Sequence record: NC_010583.1 | Length of the DNA: 64,000 bases | DNA from: Escherichia phage Eps7 | Direction: 5' to 3' (one strand) | Shown: positions 1-64,000 of the stretch, piece by piece | Position numbering within the stretch: the first letter of the stretch is position 1 | Layout: the number at the start of each line of letters is the position of its first letter | Notes under the pieces: model-generated | Seen by the model: the letters and a program-made list of their open reading frames with translations, nothing else | What the model was told of the DNA's origin: nothing | The model's database searches: none | Position numbers and translations under genes: made by a program

Positions 1-33
1 CATAATTATGTCCTTTATTGTTGTAGAAAACTA

Positions 34-246
34 TTAAAGAGCTGTCTCTTTAATAGACTCCCACTGTTTGGGGTCTTTCAGAGGAAGTTCCTCTTCTTCA
101 AACAGGTCTGTTCCATTTTCACTAACATCCCAGTTTTCTTCCATGATTTCTTCTAGAAGCTCATGTTTAGAAAGACGAGTGTAGTCTCTAGCAGACTTGT
201 GAGTGCTAGCACGGTTAAAATCATTCTTTGCAACGAAGTTACGCAT
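34..246 (-). CDS. hypothetical protein (70 aa, acidic)
   Basis: ORF followed by a GC hairpin; RBS-like GGAGAAACT upstream of the ATG on the minus strand. Confidence 0.4.
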   Translation of the reverse strand: MRNFVAKNDFNRASTHKSARDYTRLSKHELLEEIMEENWDVSENGTDLFEEEELPLKDPKQWESIKETAL

Positions 247-261
247 AGTTTCTCCAAATAA

Positions 262-279
262 GAGGGGCTTTCGCCCCCT
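262..279 (-). terminator. GGGGC-TTTC-GCCCC hairpin (GAAA tetraloop on the minus-strand RNA) followed by a T-rich tract
   Basis: perfect 5-bp GC stem with tetraloop; the transcript continues UCUUAUUUGG. Confidence 0.5.
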
Positions 280-287
280 GATTTAAA

Positions 288-503
288 TTACTTGCCCAGC
301 AGTTTAAGGATATTTTCCTTAATAGTTTGAGCAGATTTTTCACTCTTATTGGTTTCAGCCAGTTTCAGAGCGAGTTCTTCCTGCTGTTTCTGAATATCAG
401 CAGCAGTTTTCTGGTCAGCTTCAATACGAGCTTGAAGTTCATCAGTAATAGTGGTAAAGGAAGCAACGATTTCAGTAACGGAACGTGGTTTCTTAGAGAA
501 CAT
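288..503 (-). CDS. hypothetical protein (71 aa, coiled-coil-like)
   Basis: ORF with AAGGA RBS upstream; terminator hairpin immediately downstream. Confidence 0.45.
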   Translation of the reverse strand: MFSKKPRSVTEIVASFTTITDELQARIEADQKTAADIQKQQEELALKLAETNKSEKSAQTIKENILKLLGK

Positions 504-540
504 AAAAATATCCTTAATTAGTCAGAGAAAGAGTTAGTAT

Positions 541-557
541 ATGGGGCTTTCGCCCCA
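541..557 (-). terminator. second copy of the GGGGC-TTTC-GCCCC hairpin
   Basis: ATGGGGCTTTCGCCCCAT lies directly 3' of the 565..1080 gene on the minus strand. Confidence 0.4.
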
Positions 558-564
558 TCAATCA

Positions 565-1080
565 TTACTTCGCTTTACGCTTACGAGTAGGTTTAGCGGA
601 TTTACGATCAGAAGCACCAGTAAACTTAATACCGATACCGTAGCACAGAGCGCGAACGTTGTCACGGCTATACTCTACACCGAAAATATTCGGTTTAACG
701 GAGCCAAACTGTCCACGGGATTCACGCATTACGTCAGCCATTGGCTTACGCTTCTGATTGACTGCTTTTTCGTAGTCTTTCAGAGCCATACCGTTGCGGG
801 CGAACATCTCAGCACCGCCGTTAAAGCTCAGAGTTACCGGTACAGACTTATGACCTTCACCCTTGATGAACACAACCTGCTTAGCAGTTGCGCGAGTAGA
901 GTTCTTGGCCTTCGGCTTCTGGCGAACCGGAGCCGCAGACTTCAGGGCAGTCTGAGCCTGAGCATCAGTAGGATGCTTACGCAGATGACGTTCCAGACGA
1001 GCCTTACGATTGGCTTCGGTCTGAGCGAAAGTTTTAACTGCCGGAGCTGCCTGAGTTTTTGCGTTTTTCTGCTTAGCCAT
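565..1080 (-). CDS. basic (Lys/Arg/Ala-rich) protein, probably highly expressed; function unknown, possibly nucleic-acid binding
   Basis: 171-aa ORF with E. coli-optimal codons (CTG, CGT, GGT) and higher GC than neighbours; strong T5-type promoter just upstream. Confidence 0.6.
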   Translation of the reverse strand: MAKQKNAKTQAAPAVKTFAQTEANRKARLERHLRKHPTDAQAQTALKSAAPVRQKPKAKNSTRATAKQVVFIKGEGHKSVPVTLSFNGGAEMFARNGMALKDYEKAVNQKRKPMADVMRESRGQFGSVKPNIFGVEYSRDNVRALCYGIGIKFTGASDRKSAKPTRKRKAK

Positions 1081-1118
1081 TATTTGTTTTCCTTTTTGTT
1101 GATCAATTTATGAGATAT

Positions 1119-1147
1119 ATTATACGAAATTTTGAAGCGTTTAGCAA
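1119..1147 (-). promoter_or_regulatory. sigma70-type promoter (TTGCTA-17-TATAAT) with the T5-like downstream box ATATCTCATAAATTGA
   Basis: read on the minus strand; -35 complement at 1142-1147, -10 complement at 1119-1124. Confidence 0.6.
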
Positions 1148-1163
1148 ATGAATTTTTTAAAAA

Positions 1164-1442: not shown

Positions 1443-1467
1443 AAAGCCCTCCTCACTTTCAATACGA

Positions 1468-3300: not shown

Positions 3301-4155
3301 TTACACCGTAAATGGATATGCAATAGCAGGATGGTGTTCATAGCCACGAACAGTAAAATCATCCTTACTTACCCACGTTAATACATCATCCAAAGTTCTA
3401 ATATTTGGATTGATTTCTAAAGTAGGAGGTGCAAAAGGTTCACGATCGAATTGCTTGTGCTCCATCAGAACATTATACTGATCTTCATAGATATGAAGAT
3501 TAATAATCTTTTGACGAGCAATACCTGGCTTAAGACCTGTAATCTGTGCCATAATAGCTAGAAGTGCATAGCATTGCACCATATTAAATACTTGGCCCAG
3601 CAAGAAATCATTAGACCTCTGGAAAGAGTTTAGGTATAGTGTATCACCTAAAATAGAGAATTGATGGGTATGCATACACGGACGTAGGCATCCTTTACGA
3701 AATTCCCCACGGGTTCCAAAAGTTAAAATTTCTCCACGATCGTCAATCCCTCTTTTCAAATTATGATAGACTTTGGCTAACTGATCAAATACCATACCAT
3801 CAGAATTAGTCCAATGACGTCCTTGAACACCATAGACTCGTCCCATATCATCCTCGCCTTTACGGAATGGATTACCTAGCCAGGCAATATTTTCATTTGC
3901 ATTAGCATTCCATGTATTAACACCAATAGCGCGGAATTGTGCTGCTGAGTCGTACCCACGGAGATATCCGATCATTTCCATTATTGCTTGTTTAGCAAAT
4001 GCTTTACGAGTAGTTACTAGCGGCAGTTCTCCTGCTCCTACGTTAAAGGTAAAGTCTGCATCAATAATGGTTAGGCAACGAACCCCTGTTCTAGGATTCG
4101 TTACCCATACACCCTCTTCAAGAATACGTTTTCCAGTTTCAATATATTGCTTCAT
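3301..4155 (-). CDS. thyA: thymidylate synthase
   Basis: active-site region [10 protein letters not shown] (Cys nucleophile) and overall ThyA-like layout; 284 aa. Confidence 0.95.
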
Positions 4156-4680
4156 TTAAATATCACCAATTCTTGTAAGAATGAAAGCGTTTTATCTGCA
4201 TTCTGTCCTGCCACATAGTCCATTCTAGTTGCCATTGAATTATAAGTAATATGATGATGCAGATGTACATCAGCAGATAATGGTGTGGCTGAAGTAATAG
4301 TAGAGATATACGCCATATCTAGATGATTTTTTGACATACATTTCAAGAAGCAGAGTTGCTCCCCCTAATACTACAGTTACCTCTTCCTTGAGAAAATCAG
4401 GCAGACGGTATCCAATGTTGCTTATGCGTGTAGCTGATCTTATAGAGTTCGGTAGTGGTCTATTTGCATAAATAAATAGGTCAGAATCTCCTAGTATTCT
4501 TTTTTGCAGAGTCTCAGGGAATGCTAACCAAGTTCCTGCTCCTACAATAATATTGTCAGGTGCCAGAGAATCCAATGTAGCATAGAAGATATCTAGTTCT
4601 TCTTTGAAAGAACCCCAGGGGAGCTTACCATTGAGGCCGAACTCCCCATTCGGCCCAGTTGCATAGATTGCTGCTATCAT
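4152..4680 (-). CDS. frd: dihydrofolate reductase, interrupted by a frameshift in a homopolymer
   Basis: N-terminal [22 protein letters not shown] and GGATLL motifs; frame is lost at T6 (4327-4332) and a DHFR-like C-terminus resumes in the overlapping 64-aa ORF; total ~166 aa. Confidence 0.8.
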
Positions 4681-5825: not shown

Positions 5826-5856
5826 TGATTTTCCTCTTTCTCACTATTTCAGGAAT

Positions 5857-5885
5857 ATTATAGCAAATCTGGTAGCGATTAGCAA
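5857..5885 (-). promoter_or_regulatory. sigma70-type promoter TTGCTA-17-TATAAT upstream of nrdB
   Basis: minus strand reads ACTTGCTAATCGCTACCAGATTTGCTATAAT. Confidence 0.55.
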
Positions 5886-5891
5886 GTAAAA

Positions 5892-6374
5892 TTATAAACT
5901 ATCAAGCTCCAATAGTTTAGCATCGCGCCATTCTATAGCATCCTCTAATTCTTTAAATGTTTTAGTATGTTTTACACCTTTCCTAGCTATTTGGACTTGA
6001 TAAGATCCACTTGCTTTTTGGTGTATATTTTTAATACCTAACTTATTGTCCTTATGTGCTCCAACGTTCTTTCCATTACTAAATCTGTTAGAGGCTAGTA
6101 AATTAATTGCTCTATTATCATGACGTATTCTATTATCATGATCTACTTCTTTTGGGATGTACCCATGCGTAATATAGAATGCTAGGATATGTGCGTAGTA
6201 TTTTGTACCTCTTACCTGCATTACTATGTATCCTGAGCATTTTTCCAAAGAGCCTGCCTCTTTGCCTGCAAACTTAGTATTAAATGATTTATCTTCTCTA
6301 GGTTTGTGGGTAAAGATTCCGGTTTCTGGATTATAGTCAAATAACTCAGCTATTTCTTTGTATTTTTCTTCCAT
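5892..6374 (-). CDS. HNH homing endonuclease with AP2-type DNA-binding domain
   Basis: HILAFYITHGYIP..VDHDNRIRHDNRAINL (HNH) plus GVKHTKTFKELEDAIEWRD (AP2-like); sits between nrdA and nrdB. Confidence 0.8.
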   Translation of the reverse strand: MEEKYKEIAELFDYNPETGIFTHKPREDKSFNTKFAGKEAGSLEKCSGYIVMQVRGTKYYAHILAFYITHGYIPKEVDHDNRIRHDNRAINLLASNRFSNGKNVGAHKDNKLGIKNIHQKASGSYQVQIARKGVKHTKTFKELEDAIEWRDAKLLELDSL

Positions 6375-6406
6375 AATCTAAAATTACAGCCATTATAGGC
6401 CTAATA

Positions 6407-6425
6407 AAGGGGCTTTCGCCCCTTA
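6407..6425 (-). terminator. third copy of the GGGGC-TTTC-GCCCC hairpin, T-rich on both sides (possibly bidirectional)
   Basis: AAGGGGCTTTCGCCCCTT directly 3' of nrdA. Confidence 0.55.
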
Positions 6426-6429
6426 TTTA

Positions 6430-8822
6430 TTATAATTGACAACCACCAGATGCGCATCCAGCAGCAGCTTCCTCTCCTGCACCTCCACCATTTTCAGTGT
6501 TGAAGTTTGCATAATAAAAGGTTTTCCAACCGTACTTAACAGCAGTCATAAAGTCACGAACTACTACTGGGCCGGGAATGATTTCATTCTCGAACTTGGT
6601 GTAGTCATAGTACATATTCGTACTGATAGACTGGCTGAAGAATTTCTGCATGGTTGCTACCCATTTGATCCACTCGATACGATCTACATCATAAGCCAGT
6701 TTATAGCTCATTAATGTATCCCAATCAGTTGCACCTGGAGCAATTGCAATTACTTTATTAACTGCACTACCCTTGATAGATACGATCTTACGGGGCGGTT
6801 CGATAGAGTTAGTAACACCTAGCAGTACAGAGGAACTTTCACCTGGCATCTGAGCAGTCAGAACAGAGTTGCGCATACCATATTTCAGAATATCTGCACG
6901 CAGAGATTCCCAATCCATTTCTAGACCTACAGTTACCAGTTCATCAACAGTTTTCTTGTACGTGTCGATTACCAGAGTTCCTTGCGAAGGCTTAGTACGA
7001 TTAAACCAGTCACATGCACCTTGTTCTTTAGCCAGACGTACAGAGGCTTTATGTAGGAAGTAGGACAGCTTTTCAGCTTCACGGTGAATCCAGTTACGTG
7101 CTTCAACACCTTCGTAAGCCAAACCTTCTGCTGCCATTGCACCTGCTGCGTTCATCAGACCAATACCAACGTTACGACGTTTCTTAGCCGTGTACTTCCA
7201 TAGTTGGGAATGGGTAATCCTGAATCTCGATGATTGTATCAACGAATTTCAGAAGGATGTAGCAAGTTTTCTCCCATTCAGCCAGAGATTCCATGCGGCC
7301 TAGTACAACACCACCTAAGTTACACAGAGATACTTCACCAATATCTTCTGGACGCATATCGTCTAACTGATCTTGGGTTTTATACAGTTCCGTAACGTGA
7401 TGGAATGGACGGGTGGCTGAGTAATTCAACACAAAAGGGTTGGTCATACGAATCGGGTCAAGGAAGTTACCATGACGGTTAGATTCACCAATGTGATGAG
7501 CATACATACGCCCTGTTTCCATACGGATACGTAACCAAGTATCTAGGATTTCTTTTGCAGAGATTCTAGGAGCTGCTGGAATTGTTTTTCCTTCGTGGTC
7601 GATCTTTGTAAGAGAAGCCACACGTTTCTCCGCTGCCACGTAGATTTCTTCAAACTTAGCCTCATCTTCACCATAAAACGCTTCATGAACTTCTGGTGCG
7701 TAGAAGTAGGACATTAGCGTAATATCTTCGTTTTTCAGGTAACGTTTTAACAGAAGGTTGTTAAAGCTCAGAGAATAATCCATCTTATCGATTTTATTCT
7801 CGTCTGTAGCACGTTGCTGCTTAACCTGCATCAACTGAATGATTTCAGGATCGAAGTATGGATAAGACACAGTAGCAGAACCGCCACGGGTTTGCTGAGT
7901 GTTAGCTTTTACTGATCGGTCAATGTGTCGATAATATGGCAGTTTTCCGGAATGCGGGAATGCCCCATTTCGCACCGGATCAGCAATTGATCGGCTTTCA
8001 AGATGATACCCGATTCCCGCTCTGGCTGCGACCATTTTGAAGACGATGTGCTCGGCTGTGTCGATTGAATCCAGCGTGTCAGTGGAATCCACGAGACAGC
8101 AACTAGCAAATCCACGGTCACTAGAGCGCAGGCCAACCAGTGGCGGCGTAGGAACGTTGATTTTGTGGAGCGACATTGCATTGTAGAGGTCGATTGCATC
8201 TAGGATTGTCCAGTTAGGTTGAGATAACATCGCCATTGCCATACCCATGTAGGCAAACTGCGGGGTTTCATAAATTTCACCAGTTGCAATATTACGACGA
8301 GAATACTTGTCGAAGAACTGTTTCAGTCCACCACTGGTGAATAAACGATCGCGATCATGATCAATAACTTGGTTCAGAGCGTCAAACTGATCATCGCTAA
8401 TCCATGCACTCATGTCTTCCCAGCGCCAACACGAACCATATGATCGTGGAAGAAACGCAGAGAAGGGGTTCAAAGGAATCATATAGGCGTTTACGCATCT
8501 GCGCAAGACGTAATTCCTTTGCTACAGTATCATATGCTGGGTTGTCTTTGATAAGACCTTCAGCGGCTTTAATTAACACATCTTGGAGGGTATCGGAATC
8601 TACAACACCTTTTGGTAGATTTTTCTGGGCAGACATAACGACGGCAGACCAACTTACGTCAGTTGCTTTACATGCCCATGCAGCCCAATCATTGAGTTTT
8701 TCAGGAGCAAAGTCCTGAACAGTACCGTCACGTTTAATTACTTTTTCAATACTATGGCTCATTGGGGTTTCCTTTTTGTAGTTATCAGGATTTAGGAAAT
8801 ATTCTACTTTGTTTTGGGTCAT
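6430..8822 (-). CDS. nrdA: ribonucleotide reductase class Ia alpha subunit, split over three frames by single-base indels
   Basis: ATP-cone N-terminus (8397..8822), catalytic core (7184..8506) and C-terminus GIGLMN..CASGGCQL (6430..7242) are collinear with E. coli NrdA; frame breaks at G4 (8465-8468), CCC (8419-8421) and about 7181-7190. Confidence 0.9.
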
Positions 8823-9129: not shown

Positions 9130-9429
9130 TTACACCTTCCCCATATCCTTAAAGATATCGTAGAATGCTTTAGACTCCGGTGAGCGAACGTTGTCGATCA
9201 GTTCGATCATAGAGAAAGGAGAGTTTTCGTACTTCTCATAGACTTCCATAAGAAGTGCTAGACCTGAATCACCCTTGATGTCTTTCTGAGCTATATCCCC
9301 ACAGATAATTAAACGACAATCTTGTCCTACACGAGTCAGGAGACAGATCATTGCTTCAACGGAGATATTCTGAGCTTCATCGACAATTACATAGGAGTTG
9401 TTGAATGTTGCCACGCTTTCTTGAACCAT
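9130..9429 (-). CDS. PhoH-like ATPase, C-terminal half only (Walker B onward)
   Basis: VIVDEAQN, LTRVG, GDIAQKD, SGL and VRS motifs; no Walker A upstream; an out-of-frame ATG with AGGAG RBS lies at about 9463. Confidence 0.65.
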   Translation of the reverse strand: MVQESVATFNNSYVIVDEAQNISVEAMICLLTRVGQDCRLIICGDIAQKDIKGDSGLALLMEVYEKYENSPFSMIELIDNVRSPESKAFYDIFKDMGKV

Positions 9430-9536
9430 TGCGGTTCTCTCTTTTTTGACGTGCTTTTCCCATAAATAACACTCCTATAGTGTACTTCGCTAACAGAGGA
9501 TCAACAAAAAGATCTTGTTTATCAACTTACAAATAT

Positions 9537-11760: not shown

Positions 11761-11789
11761 TGATTTATAAATTTGAGAGGAGAAAGACT

Positions 11790-12071
11790 ATGAGCAAATT
11801 GCTTCCGAAAGTAGATGTTTCCCATCTTGGAGAGCCTAGTGAAGAACGTAAGGCTCTTGATTGGCTAGGTGGATTTGATTATCGTCGTGTTGTTGCAACA
11901 TGGAATACTGGTAAGGTTAAAAAATTTCGTGTGCATTATGTTGGCAAAGATAAGTGGCTCTGGATCGATTATGAAGAATCGAAGGGATCTACTAAGGCTG
12001 TAAAAGTCTATCGTATGAATGGGTATTATTATGCTCATTGTGATAAGAATGAATTTACAGTACAGAACTAA
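11790..12071 (+). CDS. hypothetical protein (93 aa from ATG 11790)
   Basis: GAGAGGAGAAAGACT-ATG RBS; the track ORF extends to 11760. Confidence 0.5.
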   Translation: MSKLLPKVDVSHLGEPSEERKALDWLGGFDYRRVVATWNTGKVKKFRVHYVGKDKWLWIDYEESKGSTKAVKVYRMNGYYYAHCDKNEFTVQN

Positions 12072-12284: not shown

Positions 12285-12447
12285 TCTAGAAAACATGCTT
12301 ATGGAGCAGTGGAACTCTGGGTATAATGCTGGGGTGGCTACTTGTATTGCGGGGTTGGATATGCTTATTAAGCAAGAAAAGGTACGTCCAGAAGAAGCAA
12401 TTCTACTCCAAAATATCATCGAAGGATTCAAGCAAGGAATCGTATAA
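12253..12447 (+). CDS. hypothetical protein (64 aa)
   Basis: GGAGGAG RBS 7 nt upstream of ATG 12253; overlaps previous ORF. Confidence 0.4.
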   Translation: MDFLNQNLKNNLENMLMEQWNSGYNAGVATCIAGLDMLIKQEKVRPEEAILLQNIIEGFKQGIV

Positions 12448-13261
12448 TGCGTAGACTAATCGTTGTTAGTGGTGCAGGTTTGAGTGTAGATAGTGGTGTT
12501 CGTGCTTTCCGTACTGATACTGCTAGTGGTAAAGCGTTGTGGGATGATTATGACCTAGAAGAGGTATGTAATATTCATGCCTTTCGTGGTAATTTTACCA
12601 TAAAACTCATATGTTTTACAACAAACGTCGTGAAGAGTTACAAACTGTTGAACCTAACCTAGCTCATTTGCGTATTGGTGAATGGTATAAACGGTATCCA
12701 AATCAAGTGGTAAACCTTACTACCAATGTTGATGATCTAATCGAACGTGCTGGAGTGCCGAGAGAAGATATACTCCATATTCATGGATATCTGAAAGAAA
12801 TTATTGTAGAGCATGCGTTCGACCAGACACGTGATGTTATTGATATTGGGTATAGTTCTATTGATCCAGATGACTTTGATTGGGTTAAACCTAACGTTAT
12901 CTTCTTTGGTGAGGTTGCTCCTGCCTATAAAACAATGTATGAGGTTTTTGATGGTATCACCAGTCATGATATGATCATCATTGTTGGGTGCTCTAACCAA
13001 GTAATTAACTTCTACTGGGAGCTATTTCCTGTTCTGAATCTTACTGCTGCAAAACTTATGGTAGTTAACTATTACGATAGTGCAGTAGCTATGGAACCAG
13101 GCTATCAGGGCATGACTCGTAGTGAAATGTATCAGTTAGAAGAACGTGGTATTCCTTACTGGAGTAAAGGTGCTGTGGATGCCTTTAGTGATCCCGATTT
13201 TATTGCTCGTGTGGAAGCTCATCTAGAAGGTAAACCCTATGTTCAACAAAAGCATGTGTGA
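12447..13261 (+). CDS. Sir2-family NAD-dependent deacetylase / ADP-ribosyltransferase-like protein, frameshifted
   Basis: VVSGAGLSVDSGVRAFR (GAGxS..SG..FR), TTNVDDLIERAG, HG, KPNVIFFGE, IIVGCS motifs; frame break at T4 (12594-12597). Confidence 0.8.
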
Positions 13262-14967: not shown

Positions 14968-15010
14968 GTGCTCAAAGACACTGATAGCACCTTACGGAAA
15001 AATTTTACTT

Positions 15011-30473: not shown

Positions 30474-30545
30474 ATACACATAAATTTGAGAGAGAAAGTT
30501 TCGGATTGATAAGAAAGTCCGAAGCAGAAAAAATAAAAATTGTAC

Positions 30546-36640: not shown

Positions 36641-36718
36641 TTTAGTAAGGAGTTGTTTTACTAATTCCTTTATTTTATTAATCTTTTTTTTTTTGAAAGG
36701 GTGCAAAACGAACCTCTT

Positions 36719-45844: not shown

Positions 45845-45882
45845 ATTTTTCCATAAAGAAAGGAGGACATAAAGTCCTCCTC
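45845..45882 (-). terminator. rho-independent terminator after the tape measure gene
   Basis: AGGAGGAC-UUUA-GUCCUCCU followed by a U-rich tract on the minus strand. Confidence 0.6.
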
Positions 45883-48800: not shown

Positions 48801-49599
48801 GTTGTTCAGCATCGAATCCATATGCAGAAGCAGAGGATGCCTGTCTCATTGCTTCTTCGAAGGAGATTGCATAACCAGCAGCCTCTTGTAGAGATCTAGC
48901 TAGAGTTTGTACCGGAGTACCTGTTTGAGTACCTACAATAGTACCGAACTTCTCCAGACGGTTTAACTGGTCACCCATCTTAAGTTGTTCGAATGCAGAT
49001 TGTAGAACGAACACGTTAGATGCGATAGCAGCATACATAAGAGGTAGAGAACCACCAACTTTAGCCATTGCTGCGAAGTCACGAGTAGCACCACGTGCAG
49101 AACCAGAGGTATTACCTAGAGCACGACTAGCACGACCTGCGGATGTGGTAGTATCATTGAAGCCTCTAGTAGTACCCGACAAAACACGGTTTGTATCATA
49201 TAATCTATCTTGAACTTTTTCAGTTGCAGCAGCTACATCGTTACCCATCGCCTTAACAGATTTACCAACATGTGTAAATCCAGACTCTAGCTTATCGGAT
49301 ACCTCAATCATAGCAATAGCAAGGTCATCTAACTTAGCACCAATACTATCCATAGATTTGGTGATACCCATCATACCTCTGCTAGCCTGCATTTTTGTTA
49401 GACTTTTAGCTGCTCTATCCGCCGCCCTCTCAATGGAGTAAAGAGTTTTGGGCATTTTTCCCAACTGCTCGTTAGTCAGTTCGGAAGCGGCAGCAGCATT
49501 TTCTAACGCATCGGAAACGTTCTCAATAGATTTTGCAGTACGGGTTGCCCCTTTCTGCTTTACATCTATAAGTAGTTCTCGTATTAGCTTATCAGTCAT
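45888..49599 (-). CDS. tail tape measure protein (pb2-like), frameshifted
   Basis: long coiled-coil protein; 879-aa and 374-aa ORFs join (~1236 aa) if the T7 run (47013-47019) is read as T6. Confidence 0.9.
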
Positions 49600-49610
49600 T
49601 TATTTTTCCC

Positions 49611-49645
49611 AATAAAAAAAGGCTCTGGGCAAATCACCCAGAGCC
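49611..49645 (-). terminator. rho-independent terminator immediately upstream of the tape measure start
   Basis: GGCUCUGGG-UGAUUUG-CCCAGAGCC followed by U7. Confidence 0.7.
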
Positions 49646-49680
49646 AAGCCTCATCGTGGAACGCCCATTGGAGGAAACTT

Positions 49681-50049
49681 TTACTGAGCTCGAGATCTAG
49701 CATGCGGTTTAATGTTCGGAGTACGACCATTAGGTTTACTATGCTTCTCGGCTCTCTTACGAGCTGCATCTACAGCTTTCGAATCAAATATATTGATGAT
49801 GTGTAGAACAAACTCTTTTTCTATAGGATCAGTAACCCCATAGATATCAAATAAAACACCTAGTGCACTTTTATCTTTTCCTATAAAGATAGGAAAGTCA
49901 CCTGGTATGAAACAGTCAATAAGGCTGTTATAAATATTCATACTAGTAGATACAATAGGTGGAAAATCTTCGAGTTCAACAGGCATTGCCTTAGGATCAG
50001 GTTCAATACCTAGTGAATCACAAAGCATTAAATATTGTTGTTTTGTCAT
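49681..50049 (-). CDS. putative tail assembly chaperone
   Basis: 122-aa ORF directly upstream of the tape measure. Confidence 0.45.
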   Translation of the reverse strand: MTKQQYLMLCDSLGIEPDPKAMPVELEDFPPIVSTSMNIYNSLIDCFIPGDFPIFIGKDKSALGVLFDIYGVTDPIEKEFVLHIINIFDSKAVDAARKRAEKHSKPNGRTPNIKPHARSRAQ

Positions 50050-50110
50050 TTTAGACGCTGAGGATTTAATACATTTATCTGCAAAATCGGCAACAGCATC
50101 TAGTAACTGC

Positions 50111-50515
50111 TTACGCTTTTGAGCTACGAAAAGTGTCTAAGTGGAACACTGTCTGGTTGATCCAAGAATCAAACGCAGCAGAGTTCTGCATAAGCATGAT
50201 AGCGTTATCGCGACTAAATGGAACTTCAGTAGTAGGATCAGCTTCAGTTTCGATAAGCATCAGCTTCTCAACATCTCCAATCGTCAAGCCAGTCCAGCCA
50301 GCAATTGCAGTGTCAACGAAAGCTTCAATAAACTTATCATCGTCCTGAACTTGAATCATAGTACCGTTAACCCACTCATCACGCTTAGCGGAAGAGATAA
50401 CACGCTTAGATGCAGCACGAGACATGTAGTTTAGTTGCAGCTTGAAGTTAGGCATACCTGGGTAAGCCAGCTCAATAGTACGAGTTTCAAGGGTAATATC
50501 TTTTAAATTGATCAT
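50111..50515 (-). CDS. putative tail assembly chaperone
   Basis: 134-aa acidic ORF upstream of the tape measure. Confidence 0.45.
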   Translation of the reverse strand: MINLKDITLETRTIELAYPGMPNFKLQLNYMSRAASKRVISSAKRDEWVNGTMIQVQDDDKFIEAFVDTAIAGWTGLTIGDVEKLMLIETEADPTTEVPFSRDNAIMLMQNSAAFDSWINQTVFHLDTFRSSKA

Positions 50516-51410
50516 TTCTTTATTTCTCCAAAGAAGTCGATTCTTACCGGATCAGAGTCTGCAGTAGGGATTACATCCCATTCAACTCTGTATATATCCG
50601 AGAATTGTAGGCGTTTTGTTATACGTGCTGAAGGAAAATCAATCGAAATATGTTCATTTCGGATGGTTAATGGTATGTCAGTTTCGGGTTCAATATTATA
50701 AAACATATCACCAGCAAATCGCTTGGTGTAGTAAAATGCAATTGTTGCCGAAGCATTCATCTCATTAACATAAGCTCTCTTATTATTATATATTTTGTTT
50801 ATGTCAAATACGCTTTTATCTTCTCTCCAAGAACATTGTTGCTGGAATGACATAGAAGCGGATAAAAGAGCCGGTAAAACGTTACTGTTAGTAGATACTC
50901 TAGGAGGACTATATGACATAACTTCACCCTGAATAATAGAACCAGCAGGAGTAAAAGTAGACACCTCAGAGAACTTACCAGATTCAATTCCTACGTTTAG
51001 AATAGGAACGCTTTTATCTAGAGAAAAGTCTACAGTAGATACATAGCAATTCTCAAAATACACACAGTTATTATCTTTATTAACTATGTATATATTAAAC
51101 ATTATTGGCTCAATATTTGTACTATAAAGTGGTAGTAGGAATGTGTTACCCCCTCGGTCAAAGCCCATCCATTCAAAGAAGTTAGCTTCAGTAAGGGTAT
51201 TATAAAATTTATAGCCAGCGATATTGAAGATGGAGTTTGTGCATTAATAATAGAGTCAGCATAGTTGGTTCTACGATGTATAGTCCTACGAAGAGTTTTA
51301 AATTCCTCATAGGACGTATTTATATCATAGTTTGACAGGGCATCAAAATGATAAGCCCTGCCATCGTACTCAACTATAACTTTTGACTCTCGCATTAGAG
51401 AGTAGTACAT
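50512..51410 (-). CDS. tail protein (~300 aa), frameshifted
   Basis: 102-aa and 218-aa ORFs overlap out of frame at 51102-51168; the upstream reading frame of the 218-aa ORF encodes plausible protein back to about 51235. Confidence 0.45.
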
Positions 51411-51414
51411 TTAA

Positions 51415-52824
51415 TTAGCCACCAGAAGCAGTAACTGTAATGCTCTTAGTACCTTCTACACCAGAACCATCTTTAGCTACGGCTTTTACAGTAACTGCAC
51501 CAGTCTTAGAAGCATCAGCGGTCAGTAAACCAGAAGTTGCATCAATAGTAGCAGCAGTACCAGAGGAAATAGACCAAGTTACTTCCTTATTAGTAGCTTC
51601 AGCAGGCAAAACATCTACAGTCATCTGAAGAGTTGCGCTATTCTCAACGGAAGTTGCATCACCCGCAGATTTAACAGTAATACCTGTTACCTTAACAGGA
51701 GCTGCTTTACCACCATCACCAGTTGCAATCAGATTTGCAATAGTAGTTTTAGTATACTTATTAGAGAAACCAAGATAACCTTCATCACCAGTATCCAGAT
51801 CAGTAGGAATTGCTTTGAACTCTACAGAAGTACCAAGTACATCGTCAGTCTCAATAGTTGGGATGTTTACGTGAGCTTGCTTAGCAACCAGAACAGCAGC
51901 AGGGCGCTCATCATCATATTCACCACCAAGTACTAGAGCGATTTCGAAACGGTTAACTACTTTCAGGGTCTTAATTAGATCTTTGTACAGATCCATAGAA
52001 CCTAGAGCTTTATCGTTAAGATAAGCAGTTAGAGAACCAGTTAATTCGAATGCACCAGTAAATGAACCGATTGGGATGTTAACACGGGACATGACGTTCG
52101 GAGTCAGATAGGTGATGTTGTTGTTGATTGTAAAGCTACCACCAGTGATCGGAATGTCATACGCCTTACCAGTATCCATATCCTTAATTTTGAGGATAGT
52201 CAGTTTGTTCTTGATGTAAGAACCCTGGATAGTCATGTAAGTTTCATCATCAATACCTACAGTATCAGGATCAAATGGGGCAGCATCCAGAGGGATTAGC
52301 TGGTTACCATTACCTGACCAAGTTACACGACCGATATCTTCGATATCAACGTTTACTTCAGCCTGGTTGATCTGGCAGGAATCGATGTAGCTCCATGCTT
52401 TATCAGTAAGGATGTAAATATGTAGCATTGCCAGTTCGTGGTATGCGTTATCCTTAAAGTTAACCATGAAGTTAGTTTCGTTAGTGTGTGCACCTGTATC
52501 ACCATCTAGGTTAATAGGTTTACCGCTAGAAAGAGCATGCCACAGCATGTAGTCCGGAACGATCTGCTTACTAGTAGTCTTATCTAAGTAAGGCAGGATG
52601 TAAGTAGAGAAACTCCACTCAGCTGCGTTCAGGGAGTCGTTGAAACGTTTTGAACCACGAGTTGGACGCGGACCAGCTTCGTTAACAGTAATATCGGTTG
52701 AGTTACTGTCCTGACCCCAAGAAATATCATCTTGAACTAGAATCTCTTGCGTGTTGGTCTTATCGTGACCAGTCTTAACCGTAGACACGAAGATTCGAGT
52801 ATTACGTAATAGTTGTAAAGACAT
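51415..52824 (-). CDS. major tail tube protein (pb6-like) with C-terminal Ig-like domain
   Basis: 469 aa; C-terminal Ig-like region TVKAVAKDGSG..TKSITV. Confidence 0.85.
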   Translation of the reverse strand: MSLQLLRNTRIFVSTVKTGHDKTNTQEILVQDDISWGQDSNSTDITVNEAGPRPTRGSKRFNDSLNAAEWSFSTYILPYLDKTTSKQIVPDYMLWHALSSGKPINLDGDTGAHTNETNFMVNFKDNAYHELAMLHIYILTDKAWSYIDSCQINQAEVNVDIEDIGRVTWSGNGNQLIPLDAAPFDPDTVGIDDETYMTIQGSYIKNKLTILKIKDMDTGKAYDIPITGGSFTINNNITYLTPNVMSRVNIPIGSFTGAFELTGSLTAYLNDKALGSMDLYKDLIKTLKVVNRFEIALVLGGEYDDERPAAVLVAKQAHVNIPTIETDDVLGTSVEFKAIPTDLDTGDEGYLGFSNKYTKTTIANLIATGDGGKAAPVKVTGITVKSAGDATSVENSATLQMTVDVLPAEATNKEVTWSISSGTAATIDATSGLLTADASKTGAVTVKAVAKDGSGVEGTKSITVTASGG

Positions 52825-52850: not shown

Positions 52851-53337
52851 TTATCTGCGAAGTGCCCTACGAGGTGGCTGATACCTCACTGTTACATTTA
52901 TTTCCGCTAAACCATATGGGGCCAGTAGACCTTCATCTGTAGCTACTGAGGTAATGCTCATATCAGTTGCCTCACATGGGAAGGTCGATCCATTAGGTTT
53001 ACTAACAGTATATTCTAAATTTCCACCTGTGTCAATGACGGTTTTTTATGTCAGCTACGAGTTTTTCAAGTTGCTCTTGAATATCTGTTTTCTCTTTGTC
53101 ATACACGAAGATTGGAAGTTCTAAAAACATCCACTGTTGGCCTGAAGGAAGATACTGCCCAGTTTCAGTTCCGATATGGACTGCCACATAAGGAAATTCT
53201 CGGATTTCCTCAAATTTATAAGTTTGACGAGAAACGTTTCCATAAAGGTTATTGAAATACTCGTCAGGTTGTGAACCATCCATTTGTGTGGCGATTCGGT
53301 CAACCACTGCTTGTGCAATACTTGTTCTGTGATCCAT
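52851..53337 (-). CDS. neck/tail-terminator protein candidate, probably frameshifted
   Basis: 101-aa ORF continues 58 codons to the pb6 RBS if the T6 run (53042-53047) is read as T5. Confidence 0.4.
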
Positions 53338-57192: not shown

Positions 57193-58406
57193 TCTTTATC
57201 CCCATCGGCAGTGCCTTGCGGTCTACCACCTTCTTGACCAGATACACCTGTTGCAGAACCAGCAACGTTAGCAGGAATACGAATCTTATTCATCTGCTCA
57301 TCATCTAAAGGTTCAAGGTTAAGCTCTTCACGAGCTTCGTTACCAGTCATGATACCGTTATTAACCAAAGAGGTTAAATGTTTAGCCTCAGCTTCTTTAT
57401 CTGGCGTCAGTGCAGCTACTTCCTTAGTATTAGGAGTAACCTTGTAGCCAAAGAAGAAAGTAAGAGAACTAGTCAGCTTGTTCAGCATAGGAATGATAGT
57501 CATGTAATAGAACAATTCGATGTTTGGTCGAATGTTAGCGTTATTACCACCATCAAGTAGCACTTGCGGAACACCAAAGGCAAGACAGATGGATTTATTA
57601 AATCCTTCGATATCTTCCTTGAAGTCTAGATCTTTAAAAGAGGATATTTGGGAGTACGGTTTTGCTTTCATACCACCATCTAGAATCAGGACAGTAGACT
57701 GACCCGTACTAGGATTATAATCGAGTTGTAATTCTTCTTGTTTACGCTCACGCAATTTCTTGTTCAGGATTTCATCCGTCTCAAGAATAAGACCAATCAC
57801 AGTGCCGTTATCGAGGAATTTCTCTTTAAAGTTAAGCATTTTAGAACGCTTCTCAAGAGAGTCAATAACTGTAGCAACACGAGATTGTCCAGAAATTTGG
57901 GAGTTTGTGCCACACACGTAACTGTTATCCTTTATAAAGATAATCTCATCTACGCGATAGTCTATCTGGTTATTAAATATGAATTTTTTGATAAACTTAT
58001 TGGCATCTGCCTCTACTTGCATTAGTGCAGCAGGGACATGGTAAAGTGCTGTGCCATCCCAATAGATGTATGCACAACCCTCAAAAAGTAGGTCAGTGAC
58101 TACAAGTCTACGGAATGTGCTTATATCCATGAATGGATTAGGTCGTACATTTAAGAGAGTGTCTAGAGTCTTTGCCTTGACGCCATTAGCGTACGTGACA
58201 ATATTATATTTATCTCCGACAGTATAAGAACACTCAGCCGCACTATCAATAACCATGTTAGCAGTTCGGTTGAGAATCTCAATCTTACTGTAGGCTTGTC
58301 CAGTGGTAAATGGCTTACGGTTAGTACGATGACTAACTGGTTCCATGTCTCTTATAATACGTTGACCCGGATTTAGCTTTTCAGTAATCCAGCTTTTTAA
58401 ACCCAT
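57189..58406 (-). CDS. portal protein
   Basis: 405 aa, between terminase and protease; acidic/Gly-rich C-terminus. Confidence 0.8.
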   Translation of the reverse strand: MGLKSWITEKLNPGQRIIRDMEPVSHRTNRKPFTTGQAYSKIEILNRTANMVIDSAAECSYTVGDKYNIVTYANGVKAKTLDTLLNVRPNPFMDISTFRRLVVTDLLFEGCAYIYWDGTALYHVPAALMQVEADANKFIKKFIFNNQIDYRVDEIIFIKDNSYVCGTNSQISGQSRVATVIDSLEKRSKMLNFKEKFLDNGTVIGLILETDEILNKKLRERKQEELQLDYNPSTGQSTVLILDGGMKAKPYSQISSFKDLDFKEDIEGFNKSICLAFGVPQVLLDGGNNANIRPNIELFYYMTIIPMLNKLTSSLTFFFGYKVTPNTKEVAALTPDKEAEAKHLTSLVNNGIMTGNEAREELNLEPLDDEQMNKIRIPANVAGSATGVSGQEGGRPQGTADGDKE

Positions 58407-58946
58407 TATAAGAACCTTGCGAATCCTGATTTAGTTTCAGTCTTGACTTGTGTCTTTTCTTGAGGATTCTGTAGCTTTTCCTTTTGTTTAAGAACCCATG
58501 CCTTCTGCTTATTAGCAGAGAAAAGGGGAGGTTCTTTAGTGTACACCTTATGTAATAGTTGGTGATGGTGGACACAAAGGGTAACAGTGTCATCTACTAG
58601 CTCATGCCTATATCTTTCATAGAATGCCGTCCTATTTGAGAGGACTGTTTCTTCGTCAGTGAAATCCAACTGGAGTTCTTTAGCAAATTTTTTAACTAGT
58701 AGAGACACTGTATGGTAATGATGAAGCTCTAATTCTTCACCACAACCACAGATTTCGCAGCGATCGGCTTTTTTTATATTGACTTTTTATACCGTCTCGC
58801 ATGAGTGATATAGCATCACGTTTATATTTTACATTTCCTGCCACAGTATTCTCCTCAACTGTATGAATATAGTATACATAATCATGTCGAATTTGTAAAG
58901 GGATTTTAAAATGCAGGAATGGGATACCAACTGAGTAGTATCCCAT
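58406..58946 (-). CDS. HNH endonuclease, frameshifted
   Basis: CEICGCGEELELHHYH ... LCVHHHQLLH motifs restored if the T7 run (58769-58775) is read as T6. Confidence 0.65.
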
Positions 58947-60756: not shown

Positions 60757-60860
60757 ATATCCTCCTTTAGGTTAGGCGTTGAACTGTTACACGTAGTCTT
60801 GGCAAGAAAACAGCTGCCGCTTCTGCAGCGTGAATGATAACACCCAACTCAACGTTGCCA

Positions 60861-62548
60861 TTACCAAGGTTTTTTATTATAAATATATCCATTTCTACGA
60901 AAAGCCATCTCATCAGGTCTACTAGCCCACGTTTGGGTATAGCTATATGAAGTTGTACTGTGATATGGTACTAGATAGCCAGGTGGCAGAGTAAGAATCT
61001 GATGAAATACACCATCACCAGCTGTATAACTTTGTTGACGTCTACCTTGTACCTGCCAAGCACTACCACCGTAAGTACGTACAGGCATACCAGCAGTATT
61101 AAGATTACCCATAATAACTTCAGTAGTTAATATAACAGTAGAGTGAGCATTTGGTAATCCCAACCAAACTGTAGCCAAAGGTGTGTAGAAGTCACCAGCA
61201 CCAGGGTAGGATGGAGTTATATCATCCCCAACATAAGTACTCGCAACGTTGCCTGGGAATAATCTAAGTGGTACGGTACTAGGACTCCATACAGGGCCAT
61301 GCTCATTACCTATAGAGTTGGTATTAGTATCTACATACCACTGTTTACCAACACCAAATTTATAAAGGCTAATTTGAGAAGCAGCACCCCCATAGTTAAC
61401 AGGAGACCACAAACCCCCATTACTAGAGCCGATAAATTCACATCGTGCAGTATTATCACCAAAAACTCCGGTATACGCGGTATTATTACCAACATACTCC
61501 ATATCAGGGCGATAACCTAAGTTTCCAAAAGCATTCTGGTTAATAAATTTATAGCCTGAGTTGGGTAAGCTAACACCTTTAATAGTAAAGTTAGATGGAG
61601 ATATCAGGATATCTGAACCAGTAAATGGATTACCAGAAATCCCCATACTACCATTAGAATAGCGTAGATTTAGCACATACCAAATAACTTTAGTAGGTGT
61701 AACATTATACCAGTCTTGCACATATACCTTTCTAGCTGACTGAGCAGCCATATTAGAAGTAGAACCTCTACAAACATATATTTTTTCTGGGTATGCAGGA
61801 GATTGGTAAAGAACGTTTACGTTATCTGGTAGTACTACCTTTTTTTACCGGCAAAGCCACGAATATTGGAACTACAAACGTAAAACCAATCATGACCTCT
61901 ACCAGCAGACCCGATAGGCGCTTGCCAGTTAGGCTCCCAATAGTCTGCATTACCACCATCTATAGGAACTGTAGATACACCCGTTGGAAAGCCCATTAAT
62001 CCCCAGGCTCTAGAAATAGCTTCACCAGCAGAAACACCACCAGGTCTAAAGATCTGGAAACCGGAAGATTGTAGCAAAGTACCGCCAGTTCCTTGTCTAG
62101 CAATAGATTCCTCATGACCTAGGCTACCATTATAAATATAGGTACCATGAGCTAAACTATCACCGATTGCAAAGGCAGATGTTATTGCCAATTCAGCACC
62201 AGCACGTGGTTGGTCTTCAAAGAATGTTAAAAACTGGCCAACCTGAGATTGTGTACCATTAAGGAAACCCCTATGAGTACCGTTTATCTCAATAGCAGTT
62301 AATATAACTCTACCAGGATCATTGGATTTAATGTTTATAATATCCCAAGGCATCTGAGTAACAAAATACCCATTACCTGCATCACCTAGAGCAGCCTCGT
62401 AAGTCCCATCAACTAGGACAAATGGCATATCTGAGTGGAAGATACTATTAGTATTTGGAGAGTAGTGCTGATTTATATCACCACCATTAGCAGCGTTTAG
62501 AGATAATACAGTTTTACCATCACTAAATTTTCCTGCGAAAAAACTCAT
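60861..62548 (-). CDS. receptor-binding tail protein (functional analogue of T5 pb5/Oad), frameshifted
   Basis: 237-aa and 296-aa ORFs join (~560 aa) if the T7 run (61840-61846) is read as T8; divergent from an Llp-like lipoprotein gene. Confidence 0.6.
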
Positions 62549-62573
62549 ACAATCTCCTTCTTTAAAAATGTAT

Positions 62574-62602
62574 TTGCTTAGATCCCTCTATTTTGCTATA
62601 AT
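62574..62602 (+). promoter_or_regulatory. T5-type early promoter TTGCTT-17-TATAAT with downstream ATTTATAAATTAAACAGAGGAACG box
   Basis: sequence match to the promoter family. Confidence 0.65.
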
Positions 62603-62631
62603 ATATTTATAAATTAAACAGAGGAACGATT

Positions 62632-62901
62632 ATGAAAAAGTTACTAGCCATCGTAGTTGCAGCAGCAGTAGTGTTGACGGGTTGTGTACCAGCTCCCGAG
62701 CCATTCTGTAAGGCATACGTGAAGTCTTATGGTCATGTTGGTGAAGAACACTATGCTTTAGATATTCGAGAAGCACGTACTGTGGGCTACCGATTCCCTA
62801 AAACTCAGTTACGCACTAAGTTTGGGTGGTGGGATTTGTCACAGTTTGCTCTCAAATATGGCGATTGCAAATTTAAACTAGAACAATCTGGTCACTTGTA
62901 A
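62632..62901 (+). CDS. llp: Llp-like lipoprotein (putative receptor-blocking superinfection-exclusion protein)
   Basis: signal peptide MKKLLAIVVAAAVVLTGC with LTGC lipobox; 89 aa; divergent from the receptor-binding protein gene. Confidence 0.75.
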   Translation: MKKLLAIVVAAAVVLTGCVPAPEPFCKAYVKSYGHVGEEHYALDIREARTVGYRFPKTQLRTKFGWWDLSQFALKYGDCKFKLEQSGHL

Positions 62902-62975
62902 TTAGTATAAAGTAAAAAGATCTCGAAGTAAACAAAAATTTTTATTTCTGGGATGAGGTACAGGTAGCAAACACA

Positions 62976-63290
62976 ATGCAAGATGAAGAAAAGTCCTTTC
63001 AGGAACCTGTTAACTTTGAAATAGATCCCAGGACTAAAGCAATACATGATGCAATTAACGAAATCATTCAAGACGTCATAGAAGATACAATAGAAGACGT
63101 GATGAGAACATCCTTCTTACTAGAAGAGTCCGGCTTCGACGAAGTAATGGATCTAATCGGGACAGTCGTAATGGTTCGTGCAATTGCTAGGATATTCCAA
63201 ATACCGGGCTTACAGGAGAAGCAAAGAGATGTCAGACGACAACAGAAGAAAGAACAGACGCGGGGAAGTGTACGAAAGTTGGATAAATAG
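62976..63290 (+). CDS. hypothetical acidic protein (104 aa)
   Basis: ORF with weak RBS. Confidence 0.35.
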   Translation: MQDEEKSFQEPVNFEIDPRTKAIHDAINEIIQDVIEDTIEDVMRTSFLLEESGFDEVMDLIGTVVMVRAIARIFQIPGLQEKQRDVRRQQKKEQTRGSVRKLDK

Positions 63291-63363
63291 TTTCGGATTC
63301 GGAACTGTATTATTCTTTATCTTTGTACTCTTTTGGTTAGCAGCTATGGCGGGGTGGTTATAA
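63239..63363 (+). CDS. small membrane protein (41 aa)
   Basis: AGGAGA RBS; basic N-terminus plus C-terminal TM segment. Confidence 0.3.
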
Positions 63364-63467
63364 TGGAAGTAGTGATTATTGCTTTACTAGTTGTGGTAAT
63401 TATCGGACAGTGCATTCTAGATAACCACTTAGCTCGTATAGAATGTAAGCTGCGGGGAGATAAATAA
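63363..63467 (+). CDS. small membrane protein (34 aa)
   Basis: TAATG coupling; TM segment VVIIALLVVVIIG. Confidence 0.3.
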   Translation: MEVVIIALLVVVIIGQCILDNHLARIECKLRGDK

Positions 63468-63661
63468 TGGATTGGCTAGGACTTATTACACTTGTAGTAT
63501 GGCTTGTCTGGATTGTTGGATATATGACGTCACATCGTAATCGTATACAGCGGCTAGAGGATAAAGTCACCCAACTGAACATTAATATGGATAAGTTACT
63601 GGACTCCCAACGTAATGATCGGGCACGTATTCACCAACTTGAGAGGGAATTAGATGTTTAG
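63467..63661 (+). CDS. small membrane protein with N-terminal TM and coiled coil (64 aa)
   Basis: GGGGAGATAAATA-ATG RBS; LITLVVWLVWIVGY. Confidence 0.45.
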   Translation: MDWLGLITLVVWLVWIVGYMTSHRNRIQRLEDKVTQLNINMDKLLDSQRNDRARIHQLERELDV

Positions 63662-63881
63662 TTTTGTAGCTATCTTCATTATCGGGGTGCTTGCGGGAAT
63701 CTTCGGAACACTCGGGGCGATTAATAAGCATCGTGAATATATTGCGGGAGTATCGCGGGAGCTTTCGGAAAGGGAGCGGAAGTTTGCGGAGAAACGTGCG
63801 GAGTTTGAGCGAGAGTGGTCGGAGGGATCTCGGGCGTCGCGGCGGAGATTTCGGGCTGATTCCGTGAGTTCCCCTAAATAG
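63654..63881 (+). CDS. small membrane protein with N-terminal TM and charged C-terminus (75 aa)
   Basis: overlaps the preceding stop; FVAIFIIGVLAGIFGTLGA. Confidence 0.45.
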   Translation: MFSFVAIFIIGVLAGIFGTLGAINKHREYIAGVSRELSERERKFAEKRAEFEREWSEGSRASRRRFRADSVSSPK

Positions 63882-64000
63882 CGCTAATTTGACTTTTGCC
63901 AAATCTCATAAGATTACACATGAAGGTGTGCCCAGAGGTTCCCTAGATGAGAATGAGTCTCATTACCGCCCCGGTACTTAGCAAGCTAATAGTCACGGCA

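Follow-up and report, generated by a model that had tools for sequence, protein, structure and literature searches.

The 64,000 nucleotides of Escherichia phage EPS7 DNA analysed here, referred to as the window, raise the question of whether the frameshifts that interrupt so many of its genes belong to the phage or to its deposited sequence. An original prediction, made from the letters alone, named eleven such genes and attributed the shifts to homopolymer-length errors rather than to programmed frameshifting. Comparison with related genomes points, with a probability that we put at about 0.9, to the scattered frameshifts being errors in the deposited EPS7 consensus and not features of the phage, while the shift in a Sir2-like gene and a 419-bp deletion in phoH probably lie outside this class of errors.

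Three of the ORF products of the window, among them an 879-aa piece of the tape measure and a 567-aa piece of pb4, match exactly the EPS7 proteins ACB97595.1, ACB97591.1 and ACB97610.1 of the 111,382-bp EPS7 record. The genome of PSa2, which is classified in the species Epseptimavirus EPS7, is collinear with the window and 97.6-98% identical to it, and this collinearity, together with the exact protein matches, places the window in the genus Epseptimavirus (T5-like Demerecviridae). The RefSeq entry for EPS7 is NC_010583 and, as far as can be gathered from work citing Hong et al. (2008), the record is the EPS7 deposit of 2008. EPS7 has been described as a plaque-forming phage whose host range has been tested. 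A literature search for prior mention of frameshifts or errors in EPS7 found none.

The window was aligned with five relatives (PSa2, 3-29, 1-29, BSP22A and SB6), and a change was called private when the window differed from all five. In this six-genome alignment, 25 single-base indels and one 2-base deletion occur only in the window; 20 of these 26 small indels fall in coding sequence, the other six being intergenic or non-coding. As had been claimed, both insertions and deletions are present, with 15 and 10, respectively, among the single-base events. The frame disruption of all eleven named genes was confirmed against their orthologues, which are intact single ORFs in the five relatives, except for the Sir2-like gene, also split in PSa2. 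Private indels break ten genes: frd, nrdA, ligB and those encoding the L-shaped tail fibre, pb4, the tape measure, a p140-type protein, the tail terminator, an HNH-like protein and the receptor-binding protein. With thyA, a gene garbled rather than broken, eleven conserved genes are affected, and none of the five relatives has a broken conserved core gene.

Several of these lesions lie in genes of nucleotide metabolism, all of them on the minus strand. In thyA (3301-4155), a private compensated pair, missed by the original prediction and consisting of an extra C at 3710 and the shortening of an A5 run to A4 at 3718-3721, leaves the ORF open and changes the FWNPGE found in all relatives to FGTRGE. 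The W-N pair belongs to an invariant motif of thymidylate synthase; when compared with solved thymidylate synthase structures, the garbled motif region fell outside the alignment. The frd gene, encoding dihydrofolate reductase (4152-4680), is divided into ORFs of 64 and 136 aa by a private expansion from T5 to T6 at 4327-4332, and has also privately lost three bases, in frame, after 4242. The nrdA gene (6430-8762) had been credited with three frameshift sites; there are indeed three clusters, but these comprise seven private single-base indels, which leave three ORF pieces. They are an extra C at 7195; a group in which T2 becomes T1 at 7414, T3 becomes T2 at 7425-7426, A3 becomes A4 at 7433-7436 and G2 becomes G3 at 7437-7439; and the loss of an A after 8421 and of another after 8466. 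Such a concentration, seven events within 1.3 kb, has a Poisson probability of 8e-7.

On the plus strand, ligB (22012-22790), which encodes the second ligase subunit, has lost a T after 22289, away from any homopolymer, and the repaired LigB is 100% identical to that of PSa2. This private break has to be distinguished from the natural split of the T5-like NAD-dependent DNA ligase: in the window, as in all relatives, ligA (20838-21809) and ligB are separate genes, and whereas that two-gene layout is conserved, the break within ligB is found in the window only.

The remaining coding lesions lie mostly among tail and virion genes, whose identities were taken from Pfam and PHROG assignments and all of which are on the minus strand. 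The gene for the L-shaped tail fibre (36883-39833) has a private shortening from C5 to C4 at 37423-37426. In pb4, the straight fibre (40261-42319), an A5 run is privately extended to A6 at 42087-42092; the 567-aa piece of GenBank EPS7 corresponds to 685 or 665 aa in the other members of its cluster that were read, and the normal A5 was present in 3/3 contigs returned from IMG/VR, a small sample. In the pb2-like tape measure (45888-49599), a private T7 at 47012-47018 takes the place of the six bases of the relatives, TTTTCT or TCTTTT, and the GenBank version is divided into pieces of 879 and 364 aa, every other cluster member read being 1236 aa long. The gene for a p140-type baseplate tube protein (50512-51410) has privately lost a C after 51202, away from any homopolymer. 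In the tail tube terminator (52851-53337), a T5 run has become T6 at 53042-53047; this private extra T is absent from 60/60 records sampled across 440, and the repaired protein is 100% identical to that of PSa2. The receptor-binding tail protein gene (60767-62548), for which only single-base frameshifts had been claimed, does carry two private insertions (an extra T at 61836 and T6 to T7 at 61840-61846), but also a 2-base deletion after 60877, so that the net indel is 0 and about 960 nt are left in the wrong frame. Two database comparisons each counted one record of at least 99% identity, with which single sites might be confirmed, but none was found for the receptor-binding gene or for positions 48500-51500. 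The Pfam models for p140, the terminator, PB4 and TMP are covered end to end by the intact relatives. In T5, the tape measure, pb4, p140, the tail terminator and the receptor-binding protein are virion components, and the assertion that essential structural genes are struck is borne out for these five.

The HNH-like gene had been delimited as 58406-58946. It is broken, by a private T6 to T7 change at 58769-58775, but its CDS, on the minus strand, occupies 58406-58844 within an affected span of 58406-58902; the CDS is 438 bp long in relatives, and a second private indel, G4 to G3 at 58900-58902, is thus upstream of it. Further non-coding private changes are an extra A, outside any homopolymer, at plus-strand position 11787, in the spacer that separates the start codon of a small gene (ATG at 11790) from its ribosome-binding site; an intergenic extra A at 14994, also outside homopolymers; an intergenic A5 to A6 at 30528-30533; an intergenic A4 to A3 at 45859-45861; and an A6 to A7 at 49614-49620, 15 nt upstream of the start codon of the tape measure. 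Some of the six intergenic indels could be genuine, as could the in-frame deletion in frd and the deletion in phoH.

Other candidates were considered and discarded. The last ORF of the window, a 'membrane' ORF at 63654-63881, might have counted as a twelfth broken gene; the sequence of its divergent 3' end recurs at 100% identity in the phages BD13 and JN-S202001, which identifies it as a natural mosaic allele. Clusters of private substitutions at 12191, 44540, 47764 and 63206 were inspected as possible hidden indel pairs and none fits one, those at 12191 and 44540 having the spacing of third-codon-position changes. An in-frame extra GCA in llp was likewise set aside as an error, 89-aa versions occurring in other phages.

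The excess of coding indels in the window is large when set against the control genomes. PSa2, 3-29 and 1-29 have 0 private small coding indels each and SB6 has 2, along with 334, 278, 275 and 823 private codon substitutions, respectively. Against its 162 private codon changes the window has 20 coding indels, and the controls together have 2 against 1,710 (Fisher p~3e-19), and the coding share of private small indels is 20/26 as against 2/11 (p=0.002). By contrast, the private substitutions of the window have an N/(N+S) of 0.22, within the range of its relatives (0.16-0.36), from which it follows that the underlying genes are under normal constraint. The lesions are therefore indifferent to a selection that the substitutions respect, striking conserved essential genes. 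Moreover, undoing the private bases restores full-length ORFs, 94-100% identical to those of PSa2 and with no decay downstream of the shift, in nine of the ten genes. For nrdA, one internal stop, located in the 7414-7439 cluster, was still present after automatic repair; when this cluster is taken as four run-length changes the match to relatives is exact.

The dependence on run length is steep. By the run in which they occur, 12 of the 25 single-base events fall in runs of at least 4, two in runs of 3, three in runs of 2 and eight outside homopolymers, although runs of at least 4 make up 4.6% of bases (binomial p=2.7e-10). Per conserved run, the indel rate is about 0.01% at lengths 1-2, 0/1,658 at length 3, 0.6% at 4, 2.9% at 5 and 11.8% at 6, while that of the controls is about 0. 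The window contains four 7-mers, and each is the product of a private insertion of one base. Homopolymer dependence of this kind is also expected from real replication slippage. The description of the sites as lying mostly at homopolymers is fair when genes are counted, 8/11 having an event in a run; counted by event it is too generous, and pure homopolymer-length error does not account for the third or so of the events (8/25) that are not run-length changes. Homopolymer miscalling thus looks like an incomplete account, the thyA and nrdA clusters resembling locally poor sequence.

This mixture bears on the origin of the errors. Ion Torrent and nanopore sequencing, both offered as sources in the original prediction, are later than 2008. 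Given the date of the deposit, the platforms that stay as candidates are 454 and low-coverage Sanger sequencing, and the window resembles the output of each in part. Like 454 homopolymer miscalls, its indels include over- and under-calls of both A/T and G/C, rise in rate with run length and split genes into adjacent ORFs; the non-homopolymer events, the three in 2-base runs and the tight clusters in thyA and nrdA set it apart. With low-coverage Sanger shotgun errors, such as those due to poor read ends, compressions or mutated clones, it shares local clustering, single-base losses flanked by G/C (GGAGG to GGGG, CCCAAG to CCCAG and GGGTTGG to GGGTGG), insertion/deletion pairs about 10-25 nt apart and a deletion between short repeats, but the fact that every 7-mer is the product of an extra base is a difference. 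Sanger reads do not normally miscount runs of 5-7 bases at the rates found here. A scheme may be proposed in which base counts would have been miscalled during sequencing or consensus building, the likelihood of a miscall climbing steeply with homopolymer length, and in which a handful of short segments of very low quality (in nrdA, thyA and the middle of the receptor-binding gene) would have gathered several errors each. Gene callers would then have split the ORFs, and the fragments would have been deposited as separate proteins.

Several other explanations have to be weighed against consensus error. The mutations might have been inherited from a library, toxic phage genes in shotgun clones or PCR products surviving in E. 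coli only when frameshifted or deleted and a low-coverage consensus then taking over their mutations. The crowding of events in nrdA, the eight events away from homopolymers, the presence of nucleases and nucleotide-metabolism enzymes among the affected genes, and the loss in phoH between TTGTTG repeats, which is of the type seen in clones, are all compatible with this idea. Nevertheless we consider it unlikely, since the sharp rise of the rate with run length and the extra base in every 7-mer indicate miscalled base counts, the six intergenic events lie where inactivation brings no selective gain, and the compensated clusters of thyA and nrdA (net 0 within 11-26 nt) produce no inactivation by frameshift. 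That the sequenced EPS7 stock really carried the mutations, either as true pseudogenes or in a heterogeneous or defective population, is very improbable. Slippage at runs is a natural mode of mutation, the phage could plausibly do without phoH, frd, nrdA and thyA, and the Sir2-like frameshift is common to PSa2; however, ten genes would have been struck at once, with the tape measure, pb4, p140, the terminator and the receptor-binding protein among them, their lesions are absent from every relative, purifying selection acts normally on the substitutions that these genes carry, and the repaired ORFs retain their high identity without decay past the shifts.

Translation or transcription might alternatively decode real frameshifts, through programmed ribosomal frameshifting or transcriptional slippage at A/T runs. 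Several sites are indeed A6-A7 or T6-T7 and potentially slippery, and programmed frameshifts are a classic feature of the tail-assembly chaperone genes of phages, so that a single-base change of frame within genes of the tail module recalls the -1 frameshift of the lambda G/GT type. In the latter, though, the site is slippery and conserved and two products are needed, whereas the sites of the window are heterogeneous and the shift exists in no relative: the ORFs of the relatives are continuous and their runs differ by one base. Eight sites, such as those of ligB and p140, lack any repeat, insertions occur alongside deletions, and the tail chaperone genes, at 49681-50049 and 50111-50515, are free of lesions. 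Runs of 6-7 are, in addition, shorter than those known for efficient transcriptional slippage. Recoding is on these grounds scarcely credible. Nor do we give much more credit to a narrower proposal, in which the frameshifts in the C run of the tail fibre, the A run of pb4 and the T run of the receptor-binding gene would be genuine, run-length heterogeneity in the population acting as a phase-variable adsorption switch, or the shifts being rescued by transcriptional slippage, and the deposit being the consensus of an off state. Error in the deposited consensus, rather than programmed frameshifting, has good support in ten of the eleven named genes from the privacy of the lesions, their presence in essential virion genes of a phage that forms plaques, their indifference to purifying selection, the run-length rate and the repair, and this support does not extend to the Sir2-like gene.

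In the Sir2-like gene (12447-13261, plus strand), a T4 at 12593-12596 replaces a T5 and divides the reading frame into ORFs of 71 and 216 aa. The T4 is also present in PSa2, its sole sharer, and SB6, with the same allele, reads T5; the matched span is 816 bases, one more than the 815 of the window, in bombadil, 8sent65, GRNsp8, PMBT27, PMBT31 and KFSSM. PSa2 is an independent isolate, about 2% divergent, without any other of the EPS7 indels, and its Sir2-like region is 99.0% identical to that of the window. Because the frameshift is common to this independent isolate, it is probably a real mutation of the EPS7/PSa2 lineage, shared by descent, that inactivates a dispensable gene. The original prediction had named independent reproduction of the indels as the observation that would count against sequencing error, and it was found for the Sir2-like gene alone, the same lesion appearing in an independently sequenced relative for none of the other ten genes. 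The likeness to genuine pseudogenes of accessory phage genes extends accordingly to the Sir2-like gene, shared with the closest relative, and possibly to phoH, while the other ten are conserved core genes intact in PSa2. As for phoH, of which a remnant persists at 9130-9463 (minus strand), 419 bp are privately missing between 9405 and 9406, which breaks the frame. Direct repeats of TTGTTG lie on either side of this deletion, which went unnoticed in the original prediction and may be real or may have arisen through a loss during cloning or assembly.

Both the genus Epseptimavirus and the species that holds PSa2 are named after EPS7, and the finding amounts to an ordinary problem of data quality in a reference genome that is widely used. 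The fragmented EPS7 proteins stand in NCBI and UniProt as real, and a comparative study tabulates the EPS7 tape measure as two separate CDSs. Analyses of core genomes, host range, receptor-binding proteins and pseudogenes inherit at least eleven spurious gene interruptions together with the garbled thyA motif. Flagging or re-sequencing the EPS7 record would be useful housekeeping that reveals nothing new about phage biology. What is left for the biology of these phages is that the EPS7/PSa2 lineage has probably lost its Sir2-like gene and EPS7, possibly, its phoH.

The window belongs to Epseptimavirus, the T5-like Salmonella and Escherichia phages, and megablast searches align it collinearly with many genomes, at identities of 97-98%. 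The nearest is Escherichia phage PSa2 (species Epseptimavirus EPS7). One record is at least 99% identical to the window somewhere in 25001-64000, outside the receptor-binding gene and 48500-51500; it may represent a more closely related phage or part of an independent sequence. An exact-sequence look-up found the deposited EPS7 proteins ACB97610.1, ACB97595.1 and ACB97591.1 (111,382-bp contig) to be identical to the window's 89-aa llp product and to its 879-aa tape-measure and 567-aa pb4 fragments, respectively. These matches identify the window as the EPS7 genome deposited as CP000917/NC_010583 (Hong et al. 2008, as referred to in citing papers). Five relatives (PSa2, 3-29, 1-29, BSP22A and SB6), each merged to full length, were aligned with the window, and changes found in the window alone are here called private.

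Gene integrity was checked by projecting the 74 CDSs of PSa2 onto the window, where 12 are not intact on translation: frd, nrdA, phoH, ligB, and those for the L-shaped tail fibre, pb4, the tape measure, a p140-type baseplate tube protein, the tail tube terminator, an HNH-like protein, the receptor-binding protein and a small membrane protein at the right end. Identical projection onto the five relatives revealed no broken conserved core gene, the differences being limited to small accessory ORFs of mosaic regions. Gene identities are confirmed by the intact orthologues, whose Pfam and PHROG assignments cover the PB4, TMP_N/TMP_C, Baseplate_Tube_p140 and Phage_tail_terminator_7 models end to end. 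All eleven genes named as frame-disrupted in the original prediction are so, at the places indicated, and essential structural genes are indeed affected, those for the tape measure, pb4, p140, the terminator and the receptor-binding protein being broken.

At base resolution, 25 single-base indels and one 2-base deletion are private, the former comprising both insertions (15) and deletions (10), as had been claimed. Those in coding sequence are an added C at 3710 and a run of five A shortened to four at 3718-3721 in thyA; T5 extended to T6 at 4327 in frd; seven events in nrdA (7195, 7414, 7425-7426, 7433-7436, 7437-7439, after 8421 and after 8466); a T lost after 22289 in ligB; C5 reduced to C4 at 37423 in the tail fibre gene; A5 extended to A6 at 42087 in pb4; a T7 run at 47012 in the tape measure gene; a C lost after 51202 in p140; T5 extended to T6 at 53042 in the terminator gene; T6 extended to T7 at 58769 in the HNH gene; and, in the receptor-binding protein gene, an added T at 61836, T6 extended to T7 at 61840 and two bases lost after 60877. 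Six further events (11787, 14994, 30528, 45859, 49614 and 58900) are non-coding; the HNH CDS measures 438 bp in the relatives, and therefore the second indel there lies upstream of the gene. The three sites proposed for nrdA stand as three clusters, but these hold seven events, within 1.3 kb (Poisson p=8e-7).

The neighbouring nrdB-nrdA gap (5826-6430) contains an ORF for a 160-aa HNH homing endonuclease (5892-6374), within an insert common to SB6, where it carries a 298-bp tandem duplication. An unrelated 515-bp insert occupies this spot in 1-29 and BSP22A, and PSa2 and 3-29 have neither, a pattern suggestive of an insertion hotspot for mobile endonucleases.

The description of the events as mostly at homopolymers is correct only in part. 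Classified by the affected run in the relatives, 12 of the 25 fall in runs of at least four bases, but two are in runs of three, three in runs of two and eight at no run. Runs of at least four make up 4.6% of the window, yet hold these 12 events (p=2.7e-10), and runs of at least five make up 1.4%, yet hold nine (p=3e-11). Among runs conserved across all five relatives, indels affect about 0.01% of those of length 1-2, 0/1,658 at 3, 0.6% at 4, 2.9% at 5 and 11.8% at 6; the same test gives essentially zero in PSa2, 3-29 and SB6. All four 7-base runs of the window are products of private single-base additions. The intergenic poly-T at 36684-36694 separates the early (+) genes from the late (-) ones. 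It is T11 in the window, ranges from T10 to T18 in four of the relatives and is broken up in SB6; its length seems to be hypervariable by nature.

The lesions ignore selection. Coding sequence holds 20 private small indels in the window against 0, 0, 0 and 2 in the controls PSa2, 3-29, 1-29 and SB6 (Fisher p=3e-19), in which private substitutions are more numerous; the coding share is 20/26 in the window and 2/11 in the controls (p=0.002). The 162 private codon substitutions give an N/(N+S) of 0.22, inside the 0.16-0.36 range of the relatives, and thus the genes are under ordinary constraint. Of 440 matching records, a spread of 60 was sampled at the terminator site, and all lack the extra T.

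When only the private indels not a multiple of three were reversed, each gene regained the length found in the relatives, nrdA needing its cluster to be re-read; the original prediction had proposed such a check against T5. Identity to PSa2 is 100% for ligB and the terminator, 97-99.7% for most genes, and, for the naturally mosaic tape measure gene, 94.3%. Automatic repair left one internal stop in nrdA, inside the 7414-7439 cluster; taken as four run-length changes, this cluster matches the relatives exactly. A lesion missing from the original list is found in thyA (3301-4155, minus strand), whose two events sum to zero and leave the ORF open, turning the FWNPGE of all relatives into FGTRGE (3705-3725). 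This segment includes the conserved Trp-Asn of thymidylate synthases. An error of this type is undetectable by ORF inspection.

Since the lesions are private, blind to selection and repairable, and the phage forms plaques despite broken virion genes, comparison of the sequences indicates, with a probability of about 0.9, that the frameshifts are errors in the deposited EPS7 consensus. T5 requires the tape measure, pb4, p140, the tail terminator and the receptor-binding protein, and a plaque-forming phage lacking all of them at once is impossible. Programmed frameshifting, already rejected in the original prediction, is ruled out, as none of the relatives requires a shift at any of the sites; the tail-chaperone genes are intact in the window on CDS projection. 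As to the platform, flow-based chemistry produces a steep run-length dependence like that of the window, and of those suggested (454, Ion Torrent or nanopore) the last two came too late for the EPS7 record, which leaves 454 or, in addition, Sanger sequencing. The non-homopolymer third of the events and the tight multi-error patches suggest that the sequence was locally poor or of low coverage, or that clones carried mutations.

Consensus error does not extend to every lesion. The Sir2-like gene (12447-13261) is split in the window and likewise in PSa2, the only two with the frameshifting T4 at 12593-12596 (T5 in SB6); in six other phages with the same Sir2 allele the matched span is one base longer, and a single Sir2 CDS is present where annotated by name. 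PSa2 was isolated separately, differs by about 2% and shares 0/26 of the other events, so the lesion is most simply taken as inherited and real, against the claim of a sequencing error here. From this pattern, the gene has probably undergone genuine inactivation specific to the EPS7/PSa2 lineage. In PV785641.1 (Salmonella phage MET_P1-197_41, 41.7 kb), nrdA and the Sir2-like gene are annotated in two pieces each, so that this record may likewise contain indel errors.

The phoH remnant (9130-9463) has a private, frame-breaking 419-bp deletion, with its junction between 9405 and 9406; TTGTTG direct repeats flank the deleted segment in the relatives. It may be a real loss from a dispensable gene, or a cloning or assembly loss. 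Error was ruled out for the right-end membrane-protein gene, which is divergent at its 3' end: 63853-64000 diverges from all five comparators but matches phages BD13 and JN-S202001 at 100% identity, which identifies a mosaic allele boundary within the gene, and hence a natural allele. In llp (62632-62901), which encodes a receptor-blocking lipoprotein, a private in-frame GCA is added to a GCA repeat at 62659-62661, making the product 89 aa long; 89-aa versions also occur in phages GSP001 and fuchur. This insertion and the in-frame three-base loss in frd may be natural changes. Dense private substitutions, including AAGAAG to AAAAAA, at 11858-12010 in a small hypothetical gene (11790-12071) look like a divergent natural allele.

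The scattered EPS7 frameshifts are a known kind of artefact and not a real biological feature. In the accessible papers, no comment on the problem was found. The finding matters for the curation of a specific, much-used record, whose fragments have entered NCBI and UniProt and, in the available text of comparative work, are tabulated as separate genes. Little is left as biology: the Sir2-like gene has probably been genuinely lost in the EPS7/PSa2 lineage, and EPS7 may also have lost phoH.
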